Of a DNA stretch of 61,796 nt, positions 1-14,766 are shown one piece after another. The notes under the pieces were generated by a model. It had not been told where the DNA came from, searched no databases, and saw only the letters and a list, made by a program, of their open reading frames with translations. The position numbers were made by a program, and so were the translations under genes. Location: NCBI GenBank assembly GCA_045536565.1, contig JAZSNU010000002.1, positions 1 to 61,796 of the forward strand, read 5' to 3'. Numbering within the stretch: the stretch's first letter is position 1; each line of letters begins with the position of its first letter. This stretch comes from Clostridia bacterium. GTDB taxonomy: Bacteria > Bacillota > Clostridia > TANB77 > CAG-465.

Positions 1-322
1 GTATACATTTTATGAATCTATCTATTCTTTTAGTTAGAAATAAAAAAGTGCAGTCTCATCTTTCTTTAATCATTTGCCAACATTCTTTTCTCCATTCATC
101 TGCTTCTTCTATGAGGAAGTCAGTTGAAAAGCATGTATACACTAAACCGGACTTCATTTTATAGTTTCCGTTTTTTAATTTTTCTATAGGCTTTTTAAAA
201 TCTTTTGTTTTAACAATATTGCTTGTATTAACATTTCTTTTATAATCACCTTTATGAATATAGCAATGCAAACAACCATCGCTACATTTTTTACAACCTC
301 TCCAAGGATTCCACATTGCCAT
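1..322 (-). pseudogene. DUF5131 / phage Gp37-Gp68-like radical-SAM-fold protein interrupted by in-frame TGA at 56-58; runs off window edge
   Basis: WNPWRGCKKCSDGCLHCY motif and STDF..EEADEWR. The frame continues past the TGA as DCTFLFLTKRIDRF, which contains the family's typical LTKR motif. Confidence 0.8.
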
Positions 323-341
323 ATTATCATCTCTGTAAATA

Positions 342-1085
342 TTATTTAATTAACTTTTCAAATGAATTTGCATTTAATATAGTATTAGATATAAACTCGC
401 CTTTATAAAAATTAGCCCAATTATTAAAAATACAAGGTGCATTTTTGGCTTTTTCTAATGAATCTATTTTTATAAAGTTGATTTTTATATTCTTTTCTTT
501 TGCATAATCTGATAATTCTTTTACTTCATATTCTACATAAGGACATTCATTGCTATAATAAATAGTAAAGTCTTGACTATCTATCTTCATAGTTCTTGCA
601 TTATCATTAAATTTAGGAGTTTCACTATCATCAAATTTTAATGCTAACAATTCATAATCTCCAATATTATCTATTACTTCAAAGCCATAATGTTCAAAGA
701 ATTTCTTTTCTCCTAAAAATGGTTTTTTCTTTTTAGATACAATAGTACATATACCACTTTTCCCTTTTTCTTTTGAATCATTTATTGCATATTCTAATAA
801 TTCTTTTCCTATTCCCTTACCTTTAAAACTACCTGCAACCCATAAGCAATAAATATATTCATAATTTTTACCACTAATAGGAACCCAAGCTGTTTCTATT
901 GGCTCATATTCAATAAATATTTTTCCTCTTGCATTTAATTTTCTAAAAATATGACCATCTTTTAATTTACTTTTTATCCATTCTTTTTTACTATCAACAC
1001 CCTCTTGATGTTTTGGATCTCCTATTGCACAACAGATATGTTCATCATCAATATTTTCTAATGTTAAATTTATATATTCGTTCAT
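342..1085 (-). CDS. GNAT N-acetyltransferase with C-terminal YoaP-like domain
   Basis: EHICCAI N-terminus, CLWVAGSFKGKGIG acetyl-CoA motif, C-terminal ECPY...AKNAPC thioredoxin-like part. Confidence 0.85.
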   Translation of the reverse strand: MNEYINLTLENIDDEHICCAIGDPKHQEGVDSKKEWIKSKLKDGHIFRKLNARGKIFIEYEPIETAWVPISGKNYEYIYCLWVAGSFKGKGIGKELLEYAINDSKEKGKSGICTIVSKKKKPFLGEKKFFEHYGFEVIDNIGDYELLALKFDDSETPKFNDNARTMKIDSQDFTIYYSNECPYVEYEVKELSDYAKEKNIKINFIKIDSLEKAKNAPCIFNNWANFYKGEFISNTILNANSFEKLIK

Positions 1086-1244: not shown

Positions 1245-1574
1245 ATGATAATAGAATATGAAGAAAAATATTTAGATGATGTTAGAGATTTACTTGTTGA
1301 ATTGGAAGAATATATTGTTTCAATTGATAAAGATAATTTAGATTATAAATGTCCTAGAGCCTGATACATTACAGAACTAATAGTTTCACAAACTATACGT
1401 TCTAAAGGAATTGGACAAAAATTAATAAATAAAATTGAAGAATATTTTAAAAGTATTAACTGTGAATATGTTTTAGTTGATGTGTTTGCATATAATGACA
1501 ATGCTTTTAACTTTTATTCTAAAAAAGATTATCACTCTAGAATGCATACAATGATTAAGAAAATTGAGGAGTAG
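1245..1574 (+). pseudogene. GNAT acetyltransferase pseudogene (in-frame TGA at 1362-1364, probable internal deletion)
   Basis: Not in ORF track. Translates MIIEYEEKYLDDVRDLLVELEEY...KCPRA*YITELIVSQTIRSKGIGQKLI...VFAYNDNAFNFY. Only 109 codons, short for a GNAT. Confidence 0.85.
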
Positions 1575-1577
1575 TTT

Positions 1578-2657
1578 ATGAAAGATTTAGAAATTGCTTT
1601 TGATTTAAAAGGTTTTTAAGAATATTTTATAAAATATAAAAAGAAAGAATATAAAGGCGAACTTGCTAAAGGAAAAACTAAAACATATTATATTTTTGAA
1701 AAGAAAAAGCCTAGTCCAGAAAATTTAGGTACATTTCTTTTAACTTTCTTAAATACAGATTTTAAGAAAAAGGAAAATTGCAAAGACTTTATATTTGAGT
1801 ACTTGTATGTTAATTTATTAACTTTAGCTAATAATAGAATTCATTTAGAAAGTGAAATACATGGTGATGATATATATCCTACAGATATAACTAAAGTCTC
1901 TTATGATATTATTCTATCTGAAGAAGAAATAGATTATTACTTTGATGAAATATATACAAAATATAAAGATATTTTAATATATTATCAAAAGCTATATACA
2001 GCTGTTGCTAATTTTAAATATTTTGATTTTCTTTCTAAAGAAATAACTTCTAAAAGTAAAGAAAATAAGTTAAAGAAATCAATGATAAAAGAATCTAGTA
2101 AAACAGAAACCTATCATACTTCACTTTCAAATATTGCAACAACTACTTTGTTTTTAAATATTCACTTTAATTTAAGAACATTTTTTACAGATAAAAATAG
2201 GAACTTTATTATAGAAAATATTCCATATAGCTTTTCTTCTAAATACTTTTACGATATTTTATTTATAAGTTTTAGAGAATTTGCTTATATGAAAAAAGAT
2301 ATAATTATACAACAATGTGAGAATTGTAAAAAGTACTTTATTCCTACTACTGCTCACGATACCAAATATTGTGATTCTGTTTTTAGAGGTAAAAAAACTT
2401 GTAAAGAAATTGGAGCTCAAAAAAGTTATGCAGAAAAATTAGAAAATAATAGACTTTTAAAAAAATGGAGAACCAGATATCAAACACTTGCTGGACTTGC
2501 TTCAAAAACTAAACCTGGTTCTAAATCTAAAGCTCCTGAAATGTATGAATATTACAAAACAGAAGGAGCTATAATGAAGGAAAAATATGAAAAAGGTGAA
2601 ATTACAGGAAAGAAATTTGAGGAATGGATTGATAGCACAAAAATAAGGAAAAGTTAA
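1578..2657 (+). pseudogene. DUF6076-like protein with C-terminal Cys cluster; in-frame TAA at codon 14 (1617-1619)
   Basis: GAGGAG SD + ATG 1578 is in frame with ORF 1803..2657; CENCKKYFIP...KYC...TC motif. Confidence 0.7.
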
Positions 2658-2673
2658 GACTTTTCCTTATTTT
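2640..2673. terminator. Bidirectional intrinsic terminator
   Basis: AAAATAAGGAAAAGT-taag-ACTTTTCCTTATTTT perfect inverted repeat between convergent genes. Confidence 0.85.
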
Positions 2674-2688
2674 GATTATTATATCTAC

Positions 2689-5600
2689 TTATTCAAAAGT
2701 ATTAAACTCTTTTTCAGCTTCTTTTTTTTCATTTATAATGCATATATCTATCTGTTTTAAAATCTCAGTATGTTTTCTTTTTCCTATATCTGAAATAATA
2801 GGATTACTATTTTTCTTTAATGTTAAAAATAAATTCTCTCTTTTTTTCAATACGCTAGAATATTTTTCATCCCAAGAATTAGGATAAACTTGAGAAATAA
2901 TGTTTTTCATTATAATTTCATCTTCATAATAATTATCTATAATATACTCTCCCAATTTAGACCACACATAATATCCTGCTTTATCGTCAAACACATATGG
3001 TTCAATTAAATACGATATTTCTAATACTTTTTTATTTGCTTCAACCCATTCTATTATTTTGTCATCATCTATATATTTTAAAATATTATCATTTAAATTA
3101 TATACTCTCTTAAAAAATTCTCTTTTTCCAAAATTAGGTTTTCCTATATAATCAATAAAAACATTTAAAAACTCAATTGGATATACCTTAATTAATGGCA
3201 CTACTATATCTTTATATGGATAGAAATAAATAAAATCTTTCTCAGTTAATAAATTTAATTTTTTATATATTTCCATAGCTTCTTCTATACCGTTATCTTT
3301 ATCAAAAGATACTTTTATTGATTCTGAAATAATATAATTTTCATGATGATCGTTTGAGTCTTTAATTTTATCATAATCAAGATTTACTATATTCTTTCTA
3401 ATATACTGTTTCAATAATGCATCTTCCGGTCTTTCTTTAACTAATCTATATAATGTAAAAAGATTTCTATTATTAAAATTATTATCTTTTGGTAATTTTT
3501 CTAAAAGTTTTATTATTTTTTCTGTATTCATTTCTCTTAAATACCAATCTAAATTACTTAAATTAATATATTTTACAATTCCTAAATCTATAGCTTTCTC
3601 AATTCTTATAAGGTCTTCGTCTTCTAGCGTATATGCTAATTGAAAATCAATATAATTTTTATTATATCTTTCATCACATATAAGATTATCTAATAATTCT
3701 GAGCATAATATTTTATTTTCATCATGATATATTCCTATCAAACTTGAAACAAGCTCTTTCATTATATTTTCATTTTTTTCATATATTAAATTTAATATTA
3801 TATATATCAAATTTTCTTTTTCATCATAATTTTCATATAATCCCTTTGCAAAAAATCCTATTCTATACGATGAACAACTATCATCTAGCAATAATAAATT
3901 TTCTTTAATTCTTTCTTTTTCTATAGCAATATCTTTTCCTAAGTTATATATAATATTGTTAATTTCTTTTTCATTTTCTGTTGTATCATCTATATTAATA
4001 TAAATTCTTTTTCCTTTATCTAAAAAAATCTTAACTTTATCAGAAATAGTTATTGGTTTCACTTTTTCTAATAATAAATCCATTCTTTGCATCAAATCAC
4101 AAGGCACTTTTTTTGAATCAAATCGTTTTATAGAAAGTAATGAAATCCATATTCTTGGCCAACTTCCTTTCAATATATTTTCTTCTACTAATTTTTCTAA
4201 TTGATTATAAAAGCCAATAGAAGATAAATTTTTAAAATTATTTGCAATTATTTCTTTTAACTCTTCGTAACATATTCCTTTATTTAATTGTTCTCCACAG
4301 TATTCTATTGTTCTTTCATACCATTCTCTTGGTTCCGGTTCTAATCCATAATCTCTTATTTGTGAACCACAATCAAATATAGGAACTCCAATAAAACTGC
4401 CATAATCTAGTACTTCATCTATTAGCTTTAAGCCTAGATTCATCTTTGTTTCATCATTATTAGTTAATAACTCATTAATTACTTCAAGCCTCATATCCAA
4501 AGGTGCATGAGTAAAAGATAAGTATATATGAAAAAAACTATTTAATATGTGCCTTATTGAATTATAATTTTCACCAATTTTTTCAGTTAAAGCAAATCTA
4601 ATTATTAAATTTATCGCTCTTACAAAAAATTTCTTATCAAATGCTATATAGCCTAATATTCTAACCCATTCATAAAATTTCTTATTTTGTCGTGAAAAAA
4701 ACAATTCATCTTGTATTCCTTCAATTCTTTCTAATATAATTTCTGGATTTAAAATAGTAATGCATTTTATTTTTTCTAATAAATTATCATTAGCATTTAT
4801 AAACTTTTCGTCATCTATATTCATAAGATACTTATTTACTATATTTTGAGCTTCATCTGAAGTATGTAAAAACTTTAATCTCCTAAAAAAAGAAATACAT
4901 AATCTTTCATTTCTTTCAATTACTTTTATAAGTTTATCTTCTGGATATTTTCTTAAAAATTCTATAGCCAATCTATTAGCTAGTGCATGTGGTAATACAG
5001 CTCTCATATTACCTCTACTTTGAACAATTTGTCTCTTTCTTAATTCATCTATATTCCCAAAAACTTTAAGTGGTTCTTCAGAAATTAAACTAGATATAAT
5101 ATTTAATTCATTTTTCTCATTATCACTATCGTATGTTACATCAAACGAATAAAATAAAGAACAAACTGTCCCTATTTTCAATAAATCATTATCGACTGTA
5201 TTACCTTGATAAAATAATCTTTCAAATAGTTCATTGTCTTTTAAAACACCAATATTCTTTCGTGTATTTATTGATTTAGCTAAATATATAGCAATTCTAA
5301 AATTACCATCCGAACATTTTACAATTGTATCTATATTAATATCGGAAATTTGCTCAAAATCTCTTTTTATTAATTTTTTTAACACTTCATCTGAAGTTGA
5401 AGTAAGATAATAGTTATTAGAATCAATATTATCATCCTCTTTTACTTCATATTCAATTGTCATTAAACTAATCTTACCATTTTCTCTTTGGCACAATTCT
5501 GTTAATTTGTTATGCATCTTTGCTTCACAATTATCTACTATAAGTATAATTTGCTTATTTAAATTTTCTAGTTGTTGAATAAAAGTAATAGGGTCTGGAA

Positions 5601-6429
5601 ACAAGTTATCACTTACATCACCATATATAACCATAGTTTTATTTAATGCATTTTCTCCAATTGTATTATCAAATAATGCCTGAGCTAATCTTGTTTTACC
5701 AACTCCAGACAACCCTGCTAATCTTACAGCATTTTGTGGAACTATTAAGTTTAATCTCATTTGATTAATCCCATCAATCAATTTAAGTTTATTATCTTTA
5801 TTAAAATCATTATAATAAAGAGTTGATTCTTCATTTATAATAAATTCTTGTTCTTTAGTTCTTCTATTTGACCAATTACAATATGATGTCCACCCATTTG
5901 TGTTTTTTTTGTTCTTATCATTAACCCAACATACTAATGATGGATACTTTCTAGTCCAAATTGCTATTCTATTGCTATCATAAAATTTTACTGTTATATT
6001 AGTAATTCCAGATGCATCTAAAATTTCTTTCATTGCACTAATTCTGCTATTATAAGTTACTTCTGTTAAATCATCTCCACTACTAGCAATAATATATGCT
6101 CCATTATTTTCAGATAATGTTTCAATACATTTCTTTATACTACCATCTATATTAGTCATTTCTTTCTTAATTTTAGCTGGAGTCATCATTGGTTTTTTTA
6201 CTTGAAAAATAGTATTTTTTTTAGGTATAAAACCGCAAATTTCACTTTCTTTTACTATATTAACTTTAACATCTATACCATCATCTTTTTCATCTTGATT
6301 GCCACCATAACTTACCCCATATGTATCTTTAATGTTTGCATACAACTCTGCTTCACATAGCATTCCAATCAATTCTCTTAAATCGCTATCATTTAAACTC
6401 TTTATATCTTCCTTACTTATGTTCAACAT
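2689..6429 (-). CDS. 1246-aa protein: N-terminal restriction-endonuclease-like domain, STAND-like P-loop NTPase, long helical C-terminus (candidate antiphage defence protein)
   Basis: DDGIDV...FQVKK (D..D..QxK) motif, Walker A GLSGVGKT, Walker B ILIVDNCE, GGAGGG SD and TGnTATAAT promoter upstream. Confidence 0.7.
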   Translation of the reverse strand: MLNISKEDIKSLNDSDLRELIGMLCEAELYANIKDTYGVSYGGNQDEKDDGIDVKVNIVKESEICGFIPKKNTIFQVKKPMMTPAKIKKEMTNIDGSIKKCIETLSENNGAYIIASSGDDLTEVTYNSRISAMKEILDASGITNITVKFYDSNRIAIWTRKYPSLVCWVNDKNKKNTNGWTSYCNWSNRRTKEQEFIINEESTLYYNDFNKDNKLKLIDGINQMRLNLIVPQNAVRLAGLSGVGKTRLAQALFDNTIGENALNKTMVIYGDVSDNLFPDPITFIQQLENLNKQIILIVDNCEAKMHNKLTELCQRENGKISLMTIEYEVKEDDNIDSNNYYLTSTSDEVLKKLIKRDFEQISDINIDTIVKCSDGNFRIAIYLAKSINTRKNIGVLKDNELFERLFYQGNTVDNDLLKIGTVCSLFYSFDVTYDSDNEKNELNIISSLISEEPLKVFGNIDELRKRQIVQSRGNMRAVLPHALANRLAIEFLRKYPEDKLIKVIERNERLCISFFRRLKFLHTSDEAQNIVNKYLMNIDDEKFINANDNLLEKIKCITILNPEIILERIEGIQDELFFSRQNKKFYEWVRILGYIAFDKKFFVRAINLIIRFALTEKIGENYNSIRHILNSFFHIYLSFTHAPLDMRLEVINELLTNNDETKMNLGLKLIDEVLDYGSFIGVPIFDCGSQIRDYGLEPEPREWYERTIEYCGEQLNKGICYEELKEIIANNFKNLSSIGFYNQLEKLVEENILKGSWPRIWISLLSIKRFDSKKVPCDLMQRMDLLLEKVKPITISDKVKIFLDKGKRIYINIDDTTENEKEINNIIYNLGKDIAIEKERIKENLLLLDDSCSSYRIGFFAKGLYENYDEKENLIYIILNLIYEKNENIMKELVSSLIGIYHDENKILCSELLDNLICDERYNKNYIDFQLAYTLEDEDLIRIEKAIDLGIVKYINLSNLDWYLREMNTEKIIKLLEKLPKDNNFNNRNLFTLYRLVKERPEDALLKQYIRKNIVNLDYDKIKDSNDHHENYIISESIKVSFDKDNGIEEAMEIYKKLNLLTEKDFIYFYPYKDIVVPLIKVYPIEFLNVFIDYIGKPNFGKREFFKRVYNLNDNILKYIDDDKIIEWVEANKKVLEISYLIEPYVFDDKAGYYVWSKLGEYIIDNYYEDEIIMKNIISQVYPNSWDEKYSSVLKKRENLFLTLKKNSNPIISDIGKRKHTEILKQIDICIINEKKEAEKEFNTFE

Positions 6430-6705
6430 AAAAATCCCTCCTAGCTTCGTGTCACATTATATCATTTTTTGTCTTATAAATCTACTAATTCCAGTATCTC
6501 TAGCAATTTTAATTTTCTACTTTTTTCGACAATATTTTCCATTTACATTCCAAACAATACCATACACTTTAATATTATTCTTTCAAAAAATTAATTGTTG
6601 GTTAGACTTTTGTTTTTTAACTTTGTATAATTAATATATACAATCTTTATATTTCAATCTAATTGTAGATTGATGTACTCTCTCCCACACGGAAAGGAGG
6701 ATTTT

Positions 6706-7899
6706 ATGGCAGGGAGTATAGAAAAAAGAGGTAAAGACACATATAGGTTAGTTTACTTTTGTGGTAAAAACCTAGATGGTAGTCCTGCAAGACATACAAA
6801 AACTGTTCATTGTACAAAAAAAGAAGCCAAGCTTGAACTAGCAAAATTTGTTGCAGATATTGAGAAAGGAAATGTTGCCCAAGGTAACTCTATTACATTT
6901 GAGGAATTTGTGGAAATTTGAAAAAAAGATTATGGTTCTAAAGAACTAGCACCTACAACCTATTCTAGATATGTTGCAATATTAAATACTAGAATTCTAC
7001 CATACTTTGGCAAGTTCAAACTAGATAAGATTAAGCCAACAGACATTATGAAATTTTACGATATGCTTGAAAGTGATACACAAATTAAAAGATTAAAAAA
7101 TAATAAAGGTGAAAGACTTAAAAAGCCCTTATCTAGAAAAACTATTTTAGAACATCACAGATTAATTCGTGCAATGTTACACAAAGCTGTATACTGGCAA
7201 CTGCTTGTAAATAATCCAGCTGAAAGAGTTCAACCACCACGAGTTCATAAACCTAAAAGAAGATATTATGATGATGAGCAATGTAAATTCTTATTAGAAA
7301 ATTTAGAGAGGCTAAATGCAGATAATATCAAATACAAAGTAGCTATTATAATAACAATATTTACTGGAGTAAGACTTGGAGAACTTATGGGATTAGAATG
7401 GGATGATATTGATTTTAGAAATGGAATTATTAGTATTAACAAAGCAAGTCAATATTTATCTGATAAAGGAGTATTTACTAAAGACCCTAAAACAGAAAGC
7501 TCTGTTAGAGAGGTTGCAATACCCACATTTGTGATTTCATTGCTTGAAGAATATAAGTTGTGGTATGAAGAACAAAAATCGTTATACGGCGAATTATGGA
7601 CGAATTCAAACAGGTTATTTGTACAAGCTGATGGCAAACCTATGCATCCAGATACAATTAGTAAATGGTTTGTAAAATTTGTAGGAAATATTGGTCTTCC
7701 CGTAATCAACTTTCACGGGTTAAGACACACAAATGCTACACTTTTAATATCTTAAAACATAGATATTGCAGTTGTAGCAGCAAGACTAGGACATTCACAG
7801 ATTACAACAACATTAAACTTTTATGTGCATCCTGTAATATCGCACAATAAAGTTGCAGGAAATGTGTTACAAAATTTATTGTTAACACCAAAAGAATAA
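6706..7899 (+). pseudogene. Tyrosine recombinase/integrase pseudogene (TGA at 6919-6921, TAA at 7753-7755)
   Basis: Single frame MAGSIEKRG...GVRLGEL...FHGLRHT...RLGHS...NFYVH with R/HxxR/H/Y catalytic residues. The stops sit at probable Trp (TGG) and Gln (CAA) positions. Confidence 0.92.
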
Positions 7900-8073: not shown

Positions 8074-8149
<76 letters not shown>

Positions 8150-8244: not shown

Positions 8245-9066
8245 TTAGCTTTTGTTATTTAATATATTCCAATACTTCATATATGTATAAATATCTTTTG
8301 GATGATATTTTAAGCATCTAGATATACGGCTGTATAAAACAATTTTAAACATAGCTTTAACTTTTTCTCTTGGCTCATTTGTTAGGGTATATACCTCCTC
8401 TATTTGCATACTTGTTAATAAATCAGTATTACTAACTATTGCAAATAGTAAATCATACAATGGATCCCCTATAACTGGCATAGGATCAATTATTCCTATT
8501 AATTTACCATCTACTTTAACAAAATTATGAGTCCCAAAATCACCATGTATTAGTTTCTTTTCAAATGGATATTTTTGTAATATTTCTGCTGCTTCATATA
8601 CTTCATCTTTACTTTGTATATATTCAGATATGTTTTTACTGCTATACTCTATCTCACTTATCAAGAAATCTTTCCATGTATCTAGTTCTTCGTTAAGATA
8701 TCCATATCCCTCTTTACCATACACTTTATACTTACCACATACCTCTGCTAGTTTTTGTATTGTGTCCTTTGGATCATCTACCACTTTCATGATATCACCA
8801 TGTATAAAGGTATATACTACATACTCGTATTCTGGATCAACATATACTATATCTTGAAATATGTCTAAGTTATTTAATTTCAAAAACTCAACTTCTGCTT
8901 TTAGTACTAATTTATCATTTTGCTTTATTAAATATTTATCGTTAAGCAAAACAACTCTACTAGATGCTCCATCGTTATAGTATTTATGAGATTCATATTG
9001 TAAATCTAATATATCAAGCACACTTTCAATTATTTCCTTATCCTTAATATTTTCAAAATCCAACAT
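8245..9066 (-). CDS. Aminoglycoside phosphotransferase/choline kinase-like family protein
   Basis: LIHGDFGTHN Brenner motif, GIIDP...GDPLYDL. Confidence 0.85.
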   Translation of the reverse strand: MLDFENIKDKEIIESVLDILDLQYESHKYYNDGASSRVVLLNDKYLIKQNDKLVLKAEVEFLKLNNLDIFQDIVYVDPEYEYVVYTFIHGDIMKVVDDPKDTIQKLAEVCGKYKVYGKEGYGYLNEELDTWKDFLISEIEYSSKNISEYIQSKDEVYEAAEILQKYPFEKKLIHGDFGTHNFVKVDGKLIGIIDPMPVIGDPLYDLLFAIVSNTDLLTSMQIEEVYTLTNEPREKVKAMFKIVLYSRISRCLKYHPKDIYTYMKYWNILNNKS

Positions 9067-14689: not shown

Positions 14690-14766
14690 GGCGACGTAGC
14701 TTAGTTGGCTAGAGCAATCGGTTCATACCCGATAGGTCGTTGGTTCGACTCCAACCGTCGCTACCA
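14690..14766 (+). tRNA. tRNA-Met (elongator, CAT)
   Basis: GGCGACGTAGCTTAGTTGGCTAGAGC...GGTTCATACCC...GGTTCGACTCC...CGCTACCA, resembling Firmicutes elongator tRNA-Met. Confidence 0.95.

Follow-up and report, generated by a model that had tools for sequence, protein, structure and literature searches.

An intact Avs8-family gene in the remnant of a tRNA-Met integrative element of an AT-rich gut bacterium

The open reading frame (ORF) at positions 2689 to 6429 of contig JAZSNU010000002.1 (Clostridia bacterium, assembly GCA_045536565.1), here called the avs8A-like gene, encodes a protein that, judged by its sequence, is a member of the described Avs8 (PD-lambda-4) family. The window, meaning the whole stretch of 61,796 nucleotides that was analyzed, contains four neighboring genes broken, taken together, by five in-frame stops and a deletion of 52 codons, and the avs8A-like gene stands open among them for all of its 1,246 codons. 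It probably encodes a functional antiviral STAND nucleoside triphosphatase (NTPase) that arrived as cargo of an integrative element targeting a tRNA-Met gene and was kept by selection as its vehicle decayed. An earlier reading of the same DNA from its letters alone, referred to below as the original prediction, had proposed a single-gene antiphage protein composed of a nuclease, a STAND NTPase, and a sensor, which is borne out in kind. It had also suggested that the protein may not match any described Avs type and had named a PADLOC search as a check. That search returned a strong, full-length match to PD-Lambda-4_A, a family since renamed Avs8 and characterized, and this removes the novelty.

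RESULTS

Family membership

The avs8A-like protein matches PADLOC model PDLC03991 (PD-Lambda-4_A) along its entire length (E 4.5e-200, 665 bits, residues 1 to 1246 against profile positions 3 to 1283 of 1283) and PDLC03990 at E 2.4e-61, and a search of the whole host genome returned the same single PD-Lambda-4_A match. Pfam gave only sub-threshold AAA matches for this protein and NCBIfam nothing meaningful. When a 61-sequence profile of the family was compared by hhalign with the A protein of Escherichia coli strain FEX669, the two aligned with a probability of 100% (E 7e-179, 1,263 columns, positions 2 to 1283 of 1283), and the alignment with E. coli Avs8A extends to the final residue, indicating end-to-end homology. 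In strain FEX669 the A gene scores 2,518 bits and the next gene scores 653 bits on PD-Lambda-4_B; in E. coli strain EC71 (locus L092) the partner position is annotated as WP_000443183.1, the accession of ECOR07 Avs8B in the preprint that characterized the system (10.1101/2025.07.02.662641). The family is large and widespread, with 477 proteins at E ≤ 0.001 among 7,997 scored, nearly all of them 1,240 to 1,280 amino acids long. Among species-representative genomes, 540 of the 596 candidate stretches encode relatives, across many phyla, and none of the phage records encodes one.

What is established for this family comes from two preprints. The first renamed PD-lambda-4 as Avs8 and describes a STAND NTPase whose binding to HK97-fold major capsid proteins is followed by degradation of double-stranded DNA (dsDNA); it reports protection against lambda by Avs8A alone, with Avs8B dispensable, dissociation constants of Avs8A of 127 nM for lambda gpE and 14 nM for the Bas21 capsid protein, and degradation of linear dsDNA by Avs8A that requires capsid protein (10.1101/2025.07.02.662641). 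The second independently classes Avs8 (PD-lambda-4) as capsid-sensing through binding of the HK97-fold A-domain and describes Avs7, Avs8, and Avs10 as binding the same face of this A-domain with sensor architectures that differ (10.64898/2026.01.04.697583); Avs7 and Avs10, as capsid-sensing families, are set beside Avs8 here by this preprint description only. The name "PD-lambda-4" in that spelling does not appear in the main text of Vassallo 2022 (PMC9519451).

Domain anatomy

The D..D..QxK N-terminal domain, the GLSGVGKT/VDNCE NTPase, and the helical C terminus that had been read from the letters are all present (Table 1). In an alignment of 20 family sequences, D49, G51, D53, Q76, V77, K78, the Walker A stretch from G239 to T246 (GLSGVGKT), and D299 to C301 (DNC) are invariant, and the nuclease residues D49, D53, Q76, and K78 are also invariant in 38 N-terminal domains from many phyla. 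In the AlphaFold model of residues 1 to 520 (predicted local distance difference test [pLDDT] 86.9, predicted template modeling score [pTM] 0.78), the core of the N-terminal domain has the topology alpha-beta-beta-beta-alpha-beta, with a helix at residues 14 to 33 and strands at 39 to 41, 54 to 57, 72 to 78, and 111 to 116; D53 opens strand 2, and strand 3 carries QxK. On the grounds of motif, topology, and homology to Avs8A, this domain is putatively an Mrr-like nuclease. It is followed in the model by a P-loop domain, a helical domain, and a winged-helix-like part.

Foldseek placed Avs4 (8dgf_A) first among the matches of residues 1 to 520 (E 6.8e-9, 577 columns), followed by plant NRC receptors (NRC2/3), a STAND-TPR protein, Avs3, Apaf-1, NOD2, and NLRC4, mixed with clamp loaders. 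Pfam NB-ARC matched weakly in 4 of the 20 family members. The invariant GLSGVGKT at residues 239 to 246 and D299, together with the Avs4 and NLR matches in Foldseek, support a STAND P-loop NTPase. Avs4 itself joins an Mrr-like nuclease to a STAND NTPase and a repeat sensor and assembles into tetramers upon target binding. The likeness of the avs8A-like protein to Salmonella SeAvs4 (PDB 8dgf) is one of structure and does not extend to sequence, where the family profile matched nothing in PDB at E ≤ 0.01; furthermore, SeAvs4 senses the portal protein, according to the title of its PDB entry, not the capsid protein.

The remainder of the protein was modeled as residues 481 to 1246 (pLDDT 89.8, pTM 0.71). 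It consists almost entirely of helices and resembles HEAT/ARM solenoids with template modeling scores of 0.2 to 0.34. The original prediction of a helical C terminus therefore stands, with a length of about 730 amino acids instead of about 800. Two motifs outside the known catalytic sites are conserved family-wide. One is LPHA (residues 479 to 482) in the winged-helix part, whose histidine is possibly the nucleotide-sensing histidine of STAND proteins; the other is the near-invariant ENxNSIR (residues 620 to 626) in the sensor.

Intactness amid decaying neighbors

The predicted undisrupted frame of 3,741 bp was recovered under genetic code table 11, and the gene has retained signals at both ends (Table 1). 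Of these, the AGGAGG Shine-Dalgarno sequence was read directly from the DNA. The hairpin was the one terminator-like site found in the terminator scan, against 0.5 expected from shuffles, and it likely serves as a bidirectional terminator for the convergent DUF6076 and avs8A-like genes. A promoter scan was uninformative in such AT-rich DNA (36 sites against 36.2 expected).

All five nonsense codons claimed for the neighboring genes were located (Table 1). The integrase pseudogene is 71 to 75% identical to four intact orthologues of 397 to 401 amino acids, which have sense codons at both stop places. DUF6076 orthologues in sister elements are 348 to 426 amino acids long; this gene is the weakest pseudogene call, because its stop precedes the conserved region. 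In the region of the DUF5131-like gene, the DNA of relatives is 78 to 82% identical, and the GNAT remnant has intact orthologues of 162 and 172 amino acids in two relatives, where they lie amid ordinary chromosomal genes. Since both of these genes have orthologues in relatives and only three of the five stops fall within the integrative element proper (in DUF6076 and the integrase), calling the whole region an island, as had been done, overstates its common origin. The GNAT remnant abuts the truncated left end of the element, and the chromosomal setting of its intact orthologues suggests that the deletion truncating the element also extended into the chromosome. A change of the genetic code was considered as the cause of the stops and rejected, because both TGA and TAA occur among the stops, the long ORF uses TGG for every one of its 12 tryptophans, and 86% of the window falls within table 11 ORFs that reach 150 codons or more.

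How surprising is an unbroken ORF in such surroundings? The figure of about 3.7 kb of neighboring coding sequence given originally could be reproduced only by counting the intact GNAT/YoaP gene (322 + 744 + 330 + 1,080 + 1,194 nucleotides). With 5 stops in 3,670 nucleotides, 5.1 would be expected in 3,741 nucleotides, and the Poisson probability of none is about 0.006 instead of the roughly 0.01 first stated, in a test that is crude and post hoc; the two backbone genes of the element alone (3 stops in 2,274 nucleotides) give about 0.007. That the gene is a dead relic which escaped stops by chance, as the decay of its neighbors might lead one to think, is hardly credible, given this low chance, catalytic motifs that are all intact, 97 to 99% of conserved positions kept, and the retention of a strong ribosome-binding site and a terminator hairpin.

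Selection, alleles, and distribution

Among positions conserved in at least 90% of 60 homologues, the avs8A-like protein keeps 127 of 131 in its N-terminal 520 residues and 73 of 74 in the C-terminal part, which is within the range of its relatives, and its root-to-tip length of 2.229 lies within the 2.08 to 2.35 of its clade. The cluster at 90% identity holds two other full-length alleles from other samples, 94.6% and 96.0% identical and without gaps. Their substitutions avoid conserved sites, with 1 of 192 conserved against 66 of 1,054 other sites changed in one (p 2e-4) and 2 of 192 against 48 of 1,054 in the other (p 0.016). A third allele, 92% identical, is split into ORFs of 175 and 1,023 amino acids (P0123 and P0124) on one contig of 6,583 nucleotides from another sample, with the break between residues 175 and 224, which reflects either a genuine disruption or a fault of assembly; its substitutions show the same tendency (2 of 140 conserved against 79 of 883 other sites, p 7e-4). 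The closest relatives comparable as DNA are 60 to 63% identical in protein, and synonymous sites are saturated between them. Taken together, the kept positions and the within-species substitutions agree with the purifying selection proposed originally, and suggest that it has acted over the divergence time of the near-identical alleles, with occasional loss.

The family occurs in 3 of the 301 genomes of the host's order, in none of the 78 other genomes of the host's family, and in none of the 5 in its genus, a rarity that fits horizontal arrival. Hence, one may ask whether a recent arrival, by a cargo swap or a late insertion, is the sole reason that the gene is intact, without selection in the host. 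Besides the patchy distribution, such a history would fit the different cargo in each of four sister elements described below, the split allele, and a GC content of 0.20 to 0.26 in the gene, under the 0.29 to 0.31 of the integrase region (the region as a whole has about 20 to 30%). It is nevertheless improbable: the alleles are 4 to 8% apart in protein, conserved sites are depleted of their substitutions (odds ratios 0.08 to 0.22), which requires time under constraint, and there is no branch acceleration. A search of public sequencing runs found 20 runs from 13 studies that hold 20 to 46% of the sampled words; no conclusion on habitat was drawn from them.

The tRNA-Met integrative element

A distance of 175 bases separates the end of the integrase from the 3' end of a tRNA-Met gene, which faces it. 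Related integrases (74 to 75% nucleotide identity) in four relatives adjoin either tRNA-Met or incomplete copies of the 45 bases at its 3' end (positions 8074 to 8118 in the window). In all four of these sister elements, variable cargo lies between the integrase and DUF6076, and it differs from one element to the next: the first has two unknown ORFs; the second, a Beta-protein together with a cII-like gene and an HTH-M78 gene (PD-Lambda-2_B, E 3e-28); the third, a SocA/Panacea antitoxin pair; and the fourth, an HATPase_c_3 protein of 687 amino acids. Where a locus continues beyond DUF6076, as three of the four do, Phage_rep_org_N follows it, and in one of these an IstB-like ATPase comes next. 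Restriction-modification systems, an SLFN-type helicase, and a Ppl-like protein lie farther out.

The window has the same order, with a broken integrase, the avs8A-like gene, and a broken DUF6076 gene, so that the avs8A-like gene occupies the variable cargo slot. Neither Phage_rep_org_N nor the IstB-like gene known from the sister elements is present at this locus, where the decayed GNAT gene abuts DUF6076, and no second attachment copy of the tRNA-Met 3' segment lies within the window. Since the integrase has two stops and both the attachment repeat and the replication module are missing, the element is a remnant and not functional. An empty integration site was not found; synteny across the locus is lacking in all 40 relatives, so that no such site could be recognized. 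The literature searched does not mention DUF6076.

In gene content, this family of elements resembles the defense-cargo hotspots of integrative satellites such as P4-like elements and phage-inducible chromosomal islands: an integrase lies beside a tRNA gene, the conserved backbone includes a replication module, and a single slot is variable. It differs in that no packaging or capsid-redirection genes were seen here. As cargo of an integrative element with a nuclease effector that could in principle kill cells, the gene might also be an addiction or competition module that serves the element against other mobile elements and survives by post-segregational killing. This is very improbable, as no antitoxin-like partner is conserved (the largest neighbor cluster is found in 7 of 80 related loci), the element is immobile because its integrase is broken, and the characterized trigger of the family is a phage protein.

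A similar pairing was seen once elsewhere. In an uncultured Tenericutes metagenome-assembled genome (L020, 2655 to 8433), an Avs8 homologue with 44% identity lies beside an integrase of the same family (69% amino acid identity), arranged tail to tail, not head to head; it is the sole such case in 16 close loci. In the window, a second tRNA-Met gene is present at 14690 to 14766 (+), 6.5 kb from the first and on the opposite strand, and a 273-amino-acid protein with a weak APH phosphotransferase match (Pfam E 3.7e-6) is encoded just past the first tRNA gene, at 8245 to 9066 (-).

TABLE 1 Positions of the avs8A-like gene, its parts and signals, and the features around it
Feature	Position	Strand	Remarks
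avs8A-like gene (PD-Lambda-4_A family)	2689..6429	-	1,246 codons plus stop, intact (table 11)
N-terminal effector domain, restriction-endonuclease-like	5890..6429	-	Residues 1-180; D49/D53 and Q76-x-K78
STAND-type P-loop NTPase module	4870..5889	-	Residues about 181-520; Walker A 239-246, Walker B D299, helical and winged-helix parts
C-terminal all-helical solenoid sensor	2692..4869	-	Residues 521-1246; predicted structure
Shine-Dalgarno AGGAGG	6437..6442	-	7 nucleotides before ATG at 6429
15-bp hairpin	2640..2673		Between convergent DUF6076 and avs8A-like genes; terminator scan
DUF5131-like gene	2..322	-	N terminus WNPWRGC..CSDGC..CY; TGA at 56-58; frame runs on to window start
GNAT/YoaP gene	342..1085		Intact
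GNAT acetyltransferase remnant	1245..1574	+	TGA at 1362-1364; 52-codon in-frame deletion; abuts truncated left element end
DUF6076 gene, element backbone	1578..2657	+	TAA at 1617-1619 (codon 14)
Tyrosine integrase pseudogene	6706..7899	+	TGA at 6919-6921 and TAA at 7753-7755, in frame
tRNA-Met, integration target	8074..8149	-	3' end faces integrase
Sister tRNA-Met elements in relatives	L094 9002-13823; L095 1289-8174; L096 1228-5906; L097 16-4126

Predicted capsid recognition

What might the sensor recognize in this host? A PF05065 (HK97) capsid gene is present in 10 of 61 genomes of the host's family, one of them of the same genus. The sensor (residues 521 to 1246, with a 61-row alignment) was modeled together with residues 40 to 309 of the capsid protein of this same-genus prophage. 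The predicted complex received a score of 0.69 (runs 0.73, 0.67, and 0.69) against 0.00 for the best of three controls, with 185 to 190 contacts, a partner pLDDT of at least 77, and at least 78% of contacts shared between runs; 116 of 157 solved complexes attain the mark applied, as do 2 of 215 mismatched pairs, counts that are only rough with custom alignments. The predicted interface extends over the solenoid between residues 583 and 1190, and its lowest-error contacts fall at residues 621 to 627, on the ENxNSIR motif. Recall of a solved Avs8 complex by the model is unlikely, because no Avs8 structure was found in PDB by sequence. The predicted interface is consistent with the capsid sensing reported for E. 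coli Avs8A.

A sensor of the same family and mechanism could also respond, through its diverged C terminus, to something other than the HK97 major capsid protein. The PADLOC C-terminal sub-model PDLC03989 has no match at E ≤ 1, indicating that the sensor tip has diverged; the BLAST alignment with an E. coli homologue ends at residue 939, C-terminal identity falls to 23 to 28% against homologues outside the clade, and other Avs proteins are reported to accept unrelated ligands. Such a different trigger is unlikely, given that the profile alignment covers E. coli Avs8A to its end and that core contacts of the predicted complex lie on a motif conserved throughout the family.

Partner gene and genomic neighborhood

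Another question is whether the avs8A-like gene acts with a partner. Avs8B (PD-Lambda-4_B, PDLC03992) has no match at E ≤ 1 in the host genome, and none was found among the neighboring ORFs. For the family, neighborhoods were counted in the best 80 loci of relatives (from the 540 stretches that encode them). A tblastn search with E. coli Avs8B returned nothing in these 80 loci or in the window, and no neighbor gene is conserved among them. Avs8B is also absent beside the high-scoring A genes of an Enterobacter plasmid and of E. coli STEC434, meaning that Avs8B does not define the A family. With neither Avs8B nor any conserved neighbor, the family is effectively a single-gene one. In these same two genomes (E. 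coli STEC434, L091, 6001 to 11613; Enterobacter plasmid, L090, 3812 to 8846), the Avs8A genes without Avs8B adjoin other defense genes, which encode an AbiP2-type reverse transcriptase and a PD-T4-5/AbiD-like protein.

The original prediction had looked to defense-island enrichment of homologues as a check. Every third of 41 loci with full flanks was sampled, which gave 14 loci and 123 neighbor ORFs. At PADLOC E ≤ 1e-10, 27 of the 123 ORFs match; 12 loci have some match and 2 have none, so that homologues often lie near defense genes, in a count made with no matched control set. Strong named systems were found in 8 of the 14 loci, namely, PDC-S02; Borvo; AbiE with a type III restriction enzyme; pPIWI-RE; Dsr1; type I restriction-modification with PDC-S23; retron III-A; and DrmD with PDC-S06.

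DISCUSSION

Compared with Avs8A of E. coli ECOR07, the avs8A-like protein shows collinear full-length homology with the same three parts, in 1,246 instead of 1,283 amino acids. It differs in its low sequence identity, the lack of an Avs8B partner, the diverged sensor tip, and its host, a Bacilli-type gut bacterium with a 1.13-Mb genome of about 25% GC and not a gammaproteobacterium. By homology to the E. coli protein, the C-terminal solenoid would wrap a monomer of the HK97-fold major capsid protein made during phage infection. Capsid binding would free the STAND NTPase, which would oligomerize with ATP, and the assembled N-terminal Mrr-like PD-(D/E)xK domains would then degrade dsDNA, so that infection is aborted. 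Activity, oligomerization, capsid sensing, and phage protection in this host are thus expected by analogy. As for its history, the avs8A-like gene would have arrived as cargo between the integrase and DUF6076 of a small tRNA-Met integrative element; later, the element would have lost its replication module, the integrase and DUF6076 would have gained stops, and the defense gene would have been kept by selection.

Several results speak against a functional capsid-sensing nuclease of this kind. BLAST against another E. coli A protein gives only 29% identity over 990 amino acids (E 2e-116), and, as noted above, the C-terminal sub-model is unmatched. For the nuclease, Pfam Mrr_cat matches none of the 20 family members, the N-domain profile finds nothing better than E 0.34 among PDB sequences, and hhalign of this profile with nine Mrr_cat domains yields a weak probability of 1.8%, in an alignment that pairs the DxGxD with the Mrr aspartates and the QxK with the Mrr QxK. 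For the NTPase, VIA-align, which covers residues 175 to 520 with rows that barely reach residues 1 to 175, scores NB-ARC at Z 11.1 (root mean square deviation 7.3, 268 residues aligned) and the clamp-loader AAA+ protein RFC at Z 10.8, a near tie by which the fold alone does not separate STAND from AAA+. The split allele implies that occasional loss happens. For the trigger, the host genome holds no PF05065 capsid gene and hence no known cognate phage, the capsid protein was modeled with an alignment of only 5 to 6 rows, and the score of the predicted complex is the confidence of the model, not binding.

A wider proposal, which we offer tentatively and regard as somewhat doubtful, joins two statements. 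The integrase-DUF6076 slot would mark an undescribed satellite-like family of tRNA-Met elements that act as exchangeable defense carriers in gut Bacilli with tiny genomes, with the window as the end state, where the host has retained the immune gene it was brought and the vehicle has decayed; and the Avs8 clade found here may have retuned its sensor to the phage capsids of its hosts, with ENxNSIR as the family-wide core of capsid recognition.

The avs8A-like gene adds no new mechanism to those described for Avs8. It places the family in a very AT-rich gut bacterium with a 1.1-Mb genome, far from the Gammaproteobacteria in which it has been studied, and an A protein without an Avs8B match or a conserved partner in 80 related loci from many phyla agrees with the reported dispensability of Avs8B. 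The window offers a clean natural example of a defense gene that has outlasted the mobile element that delivered it. Finally, the ENxNSIR motif and the predicted capsid interface provide concrete targets for mutagenesis in E. coli Avs8A.

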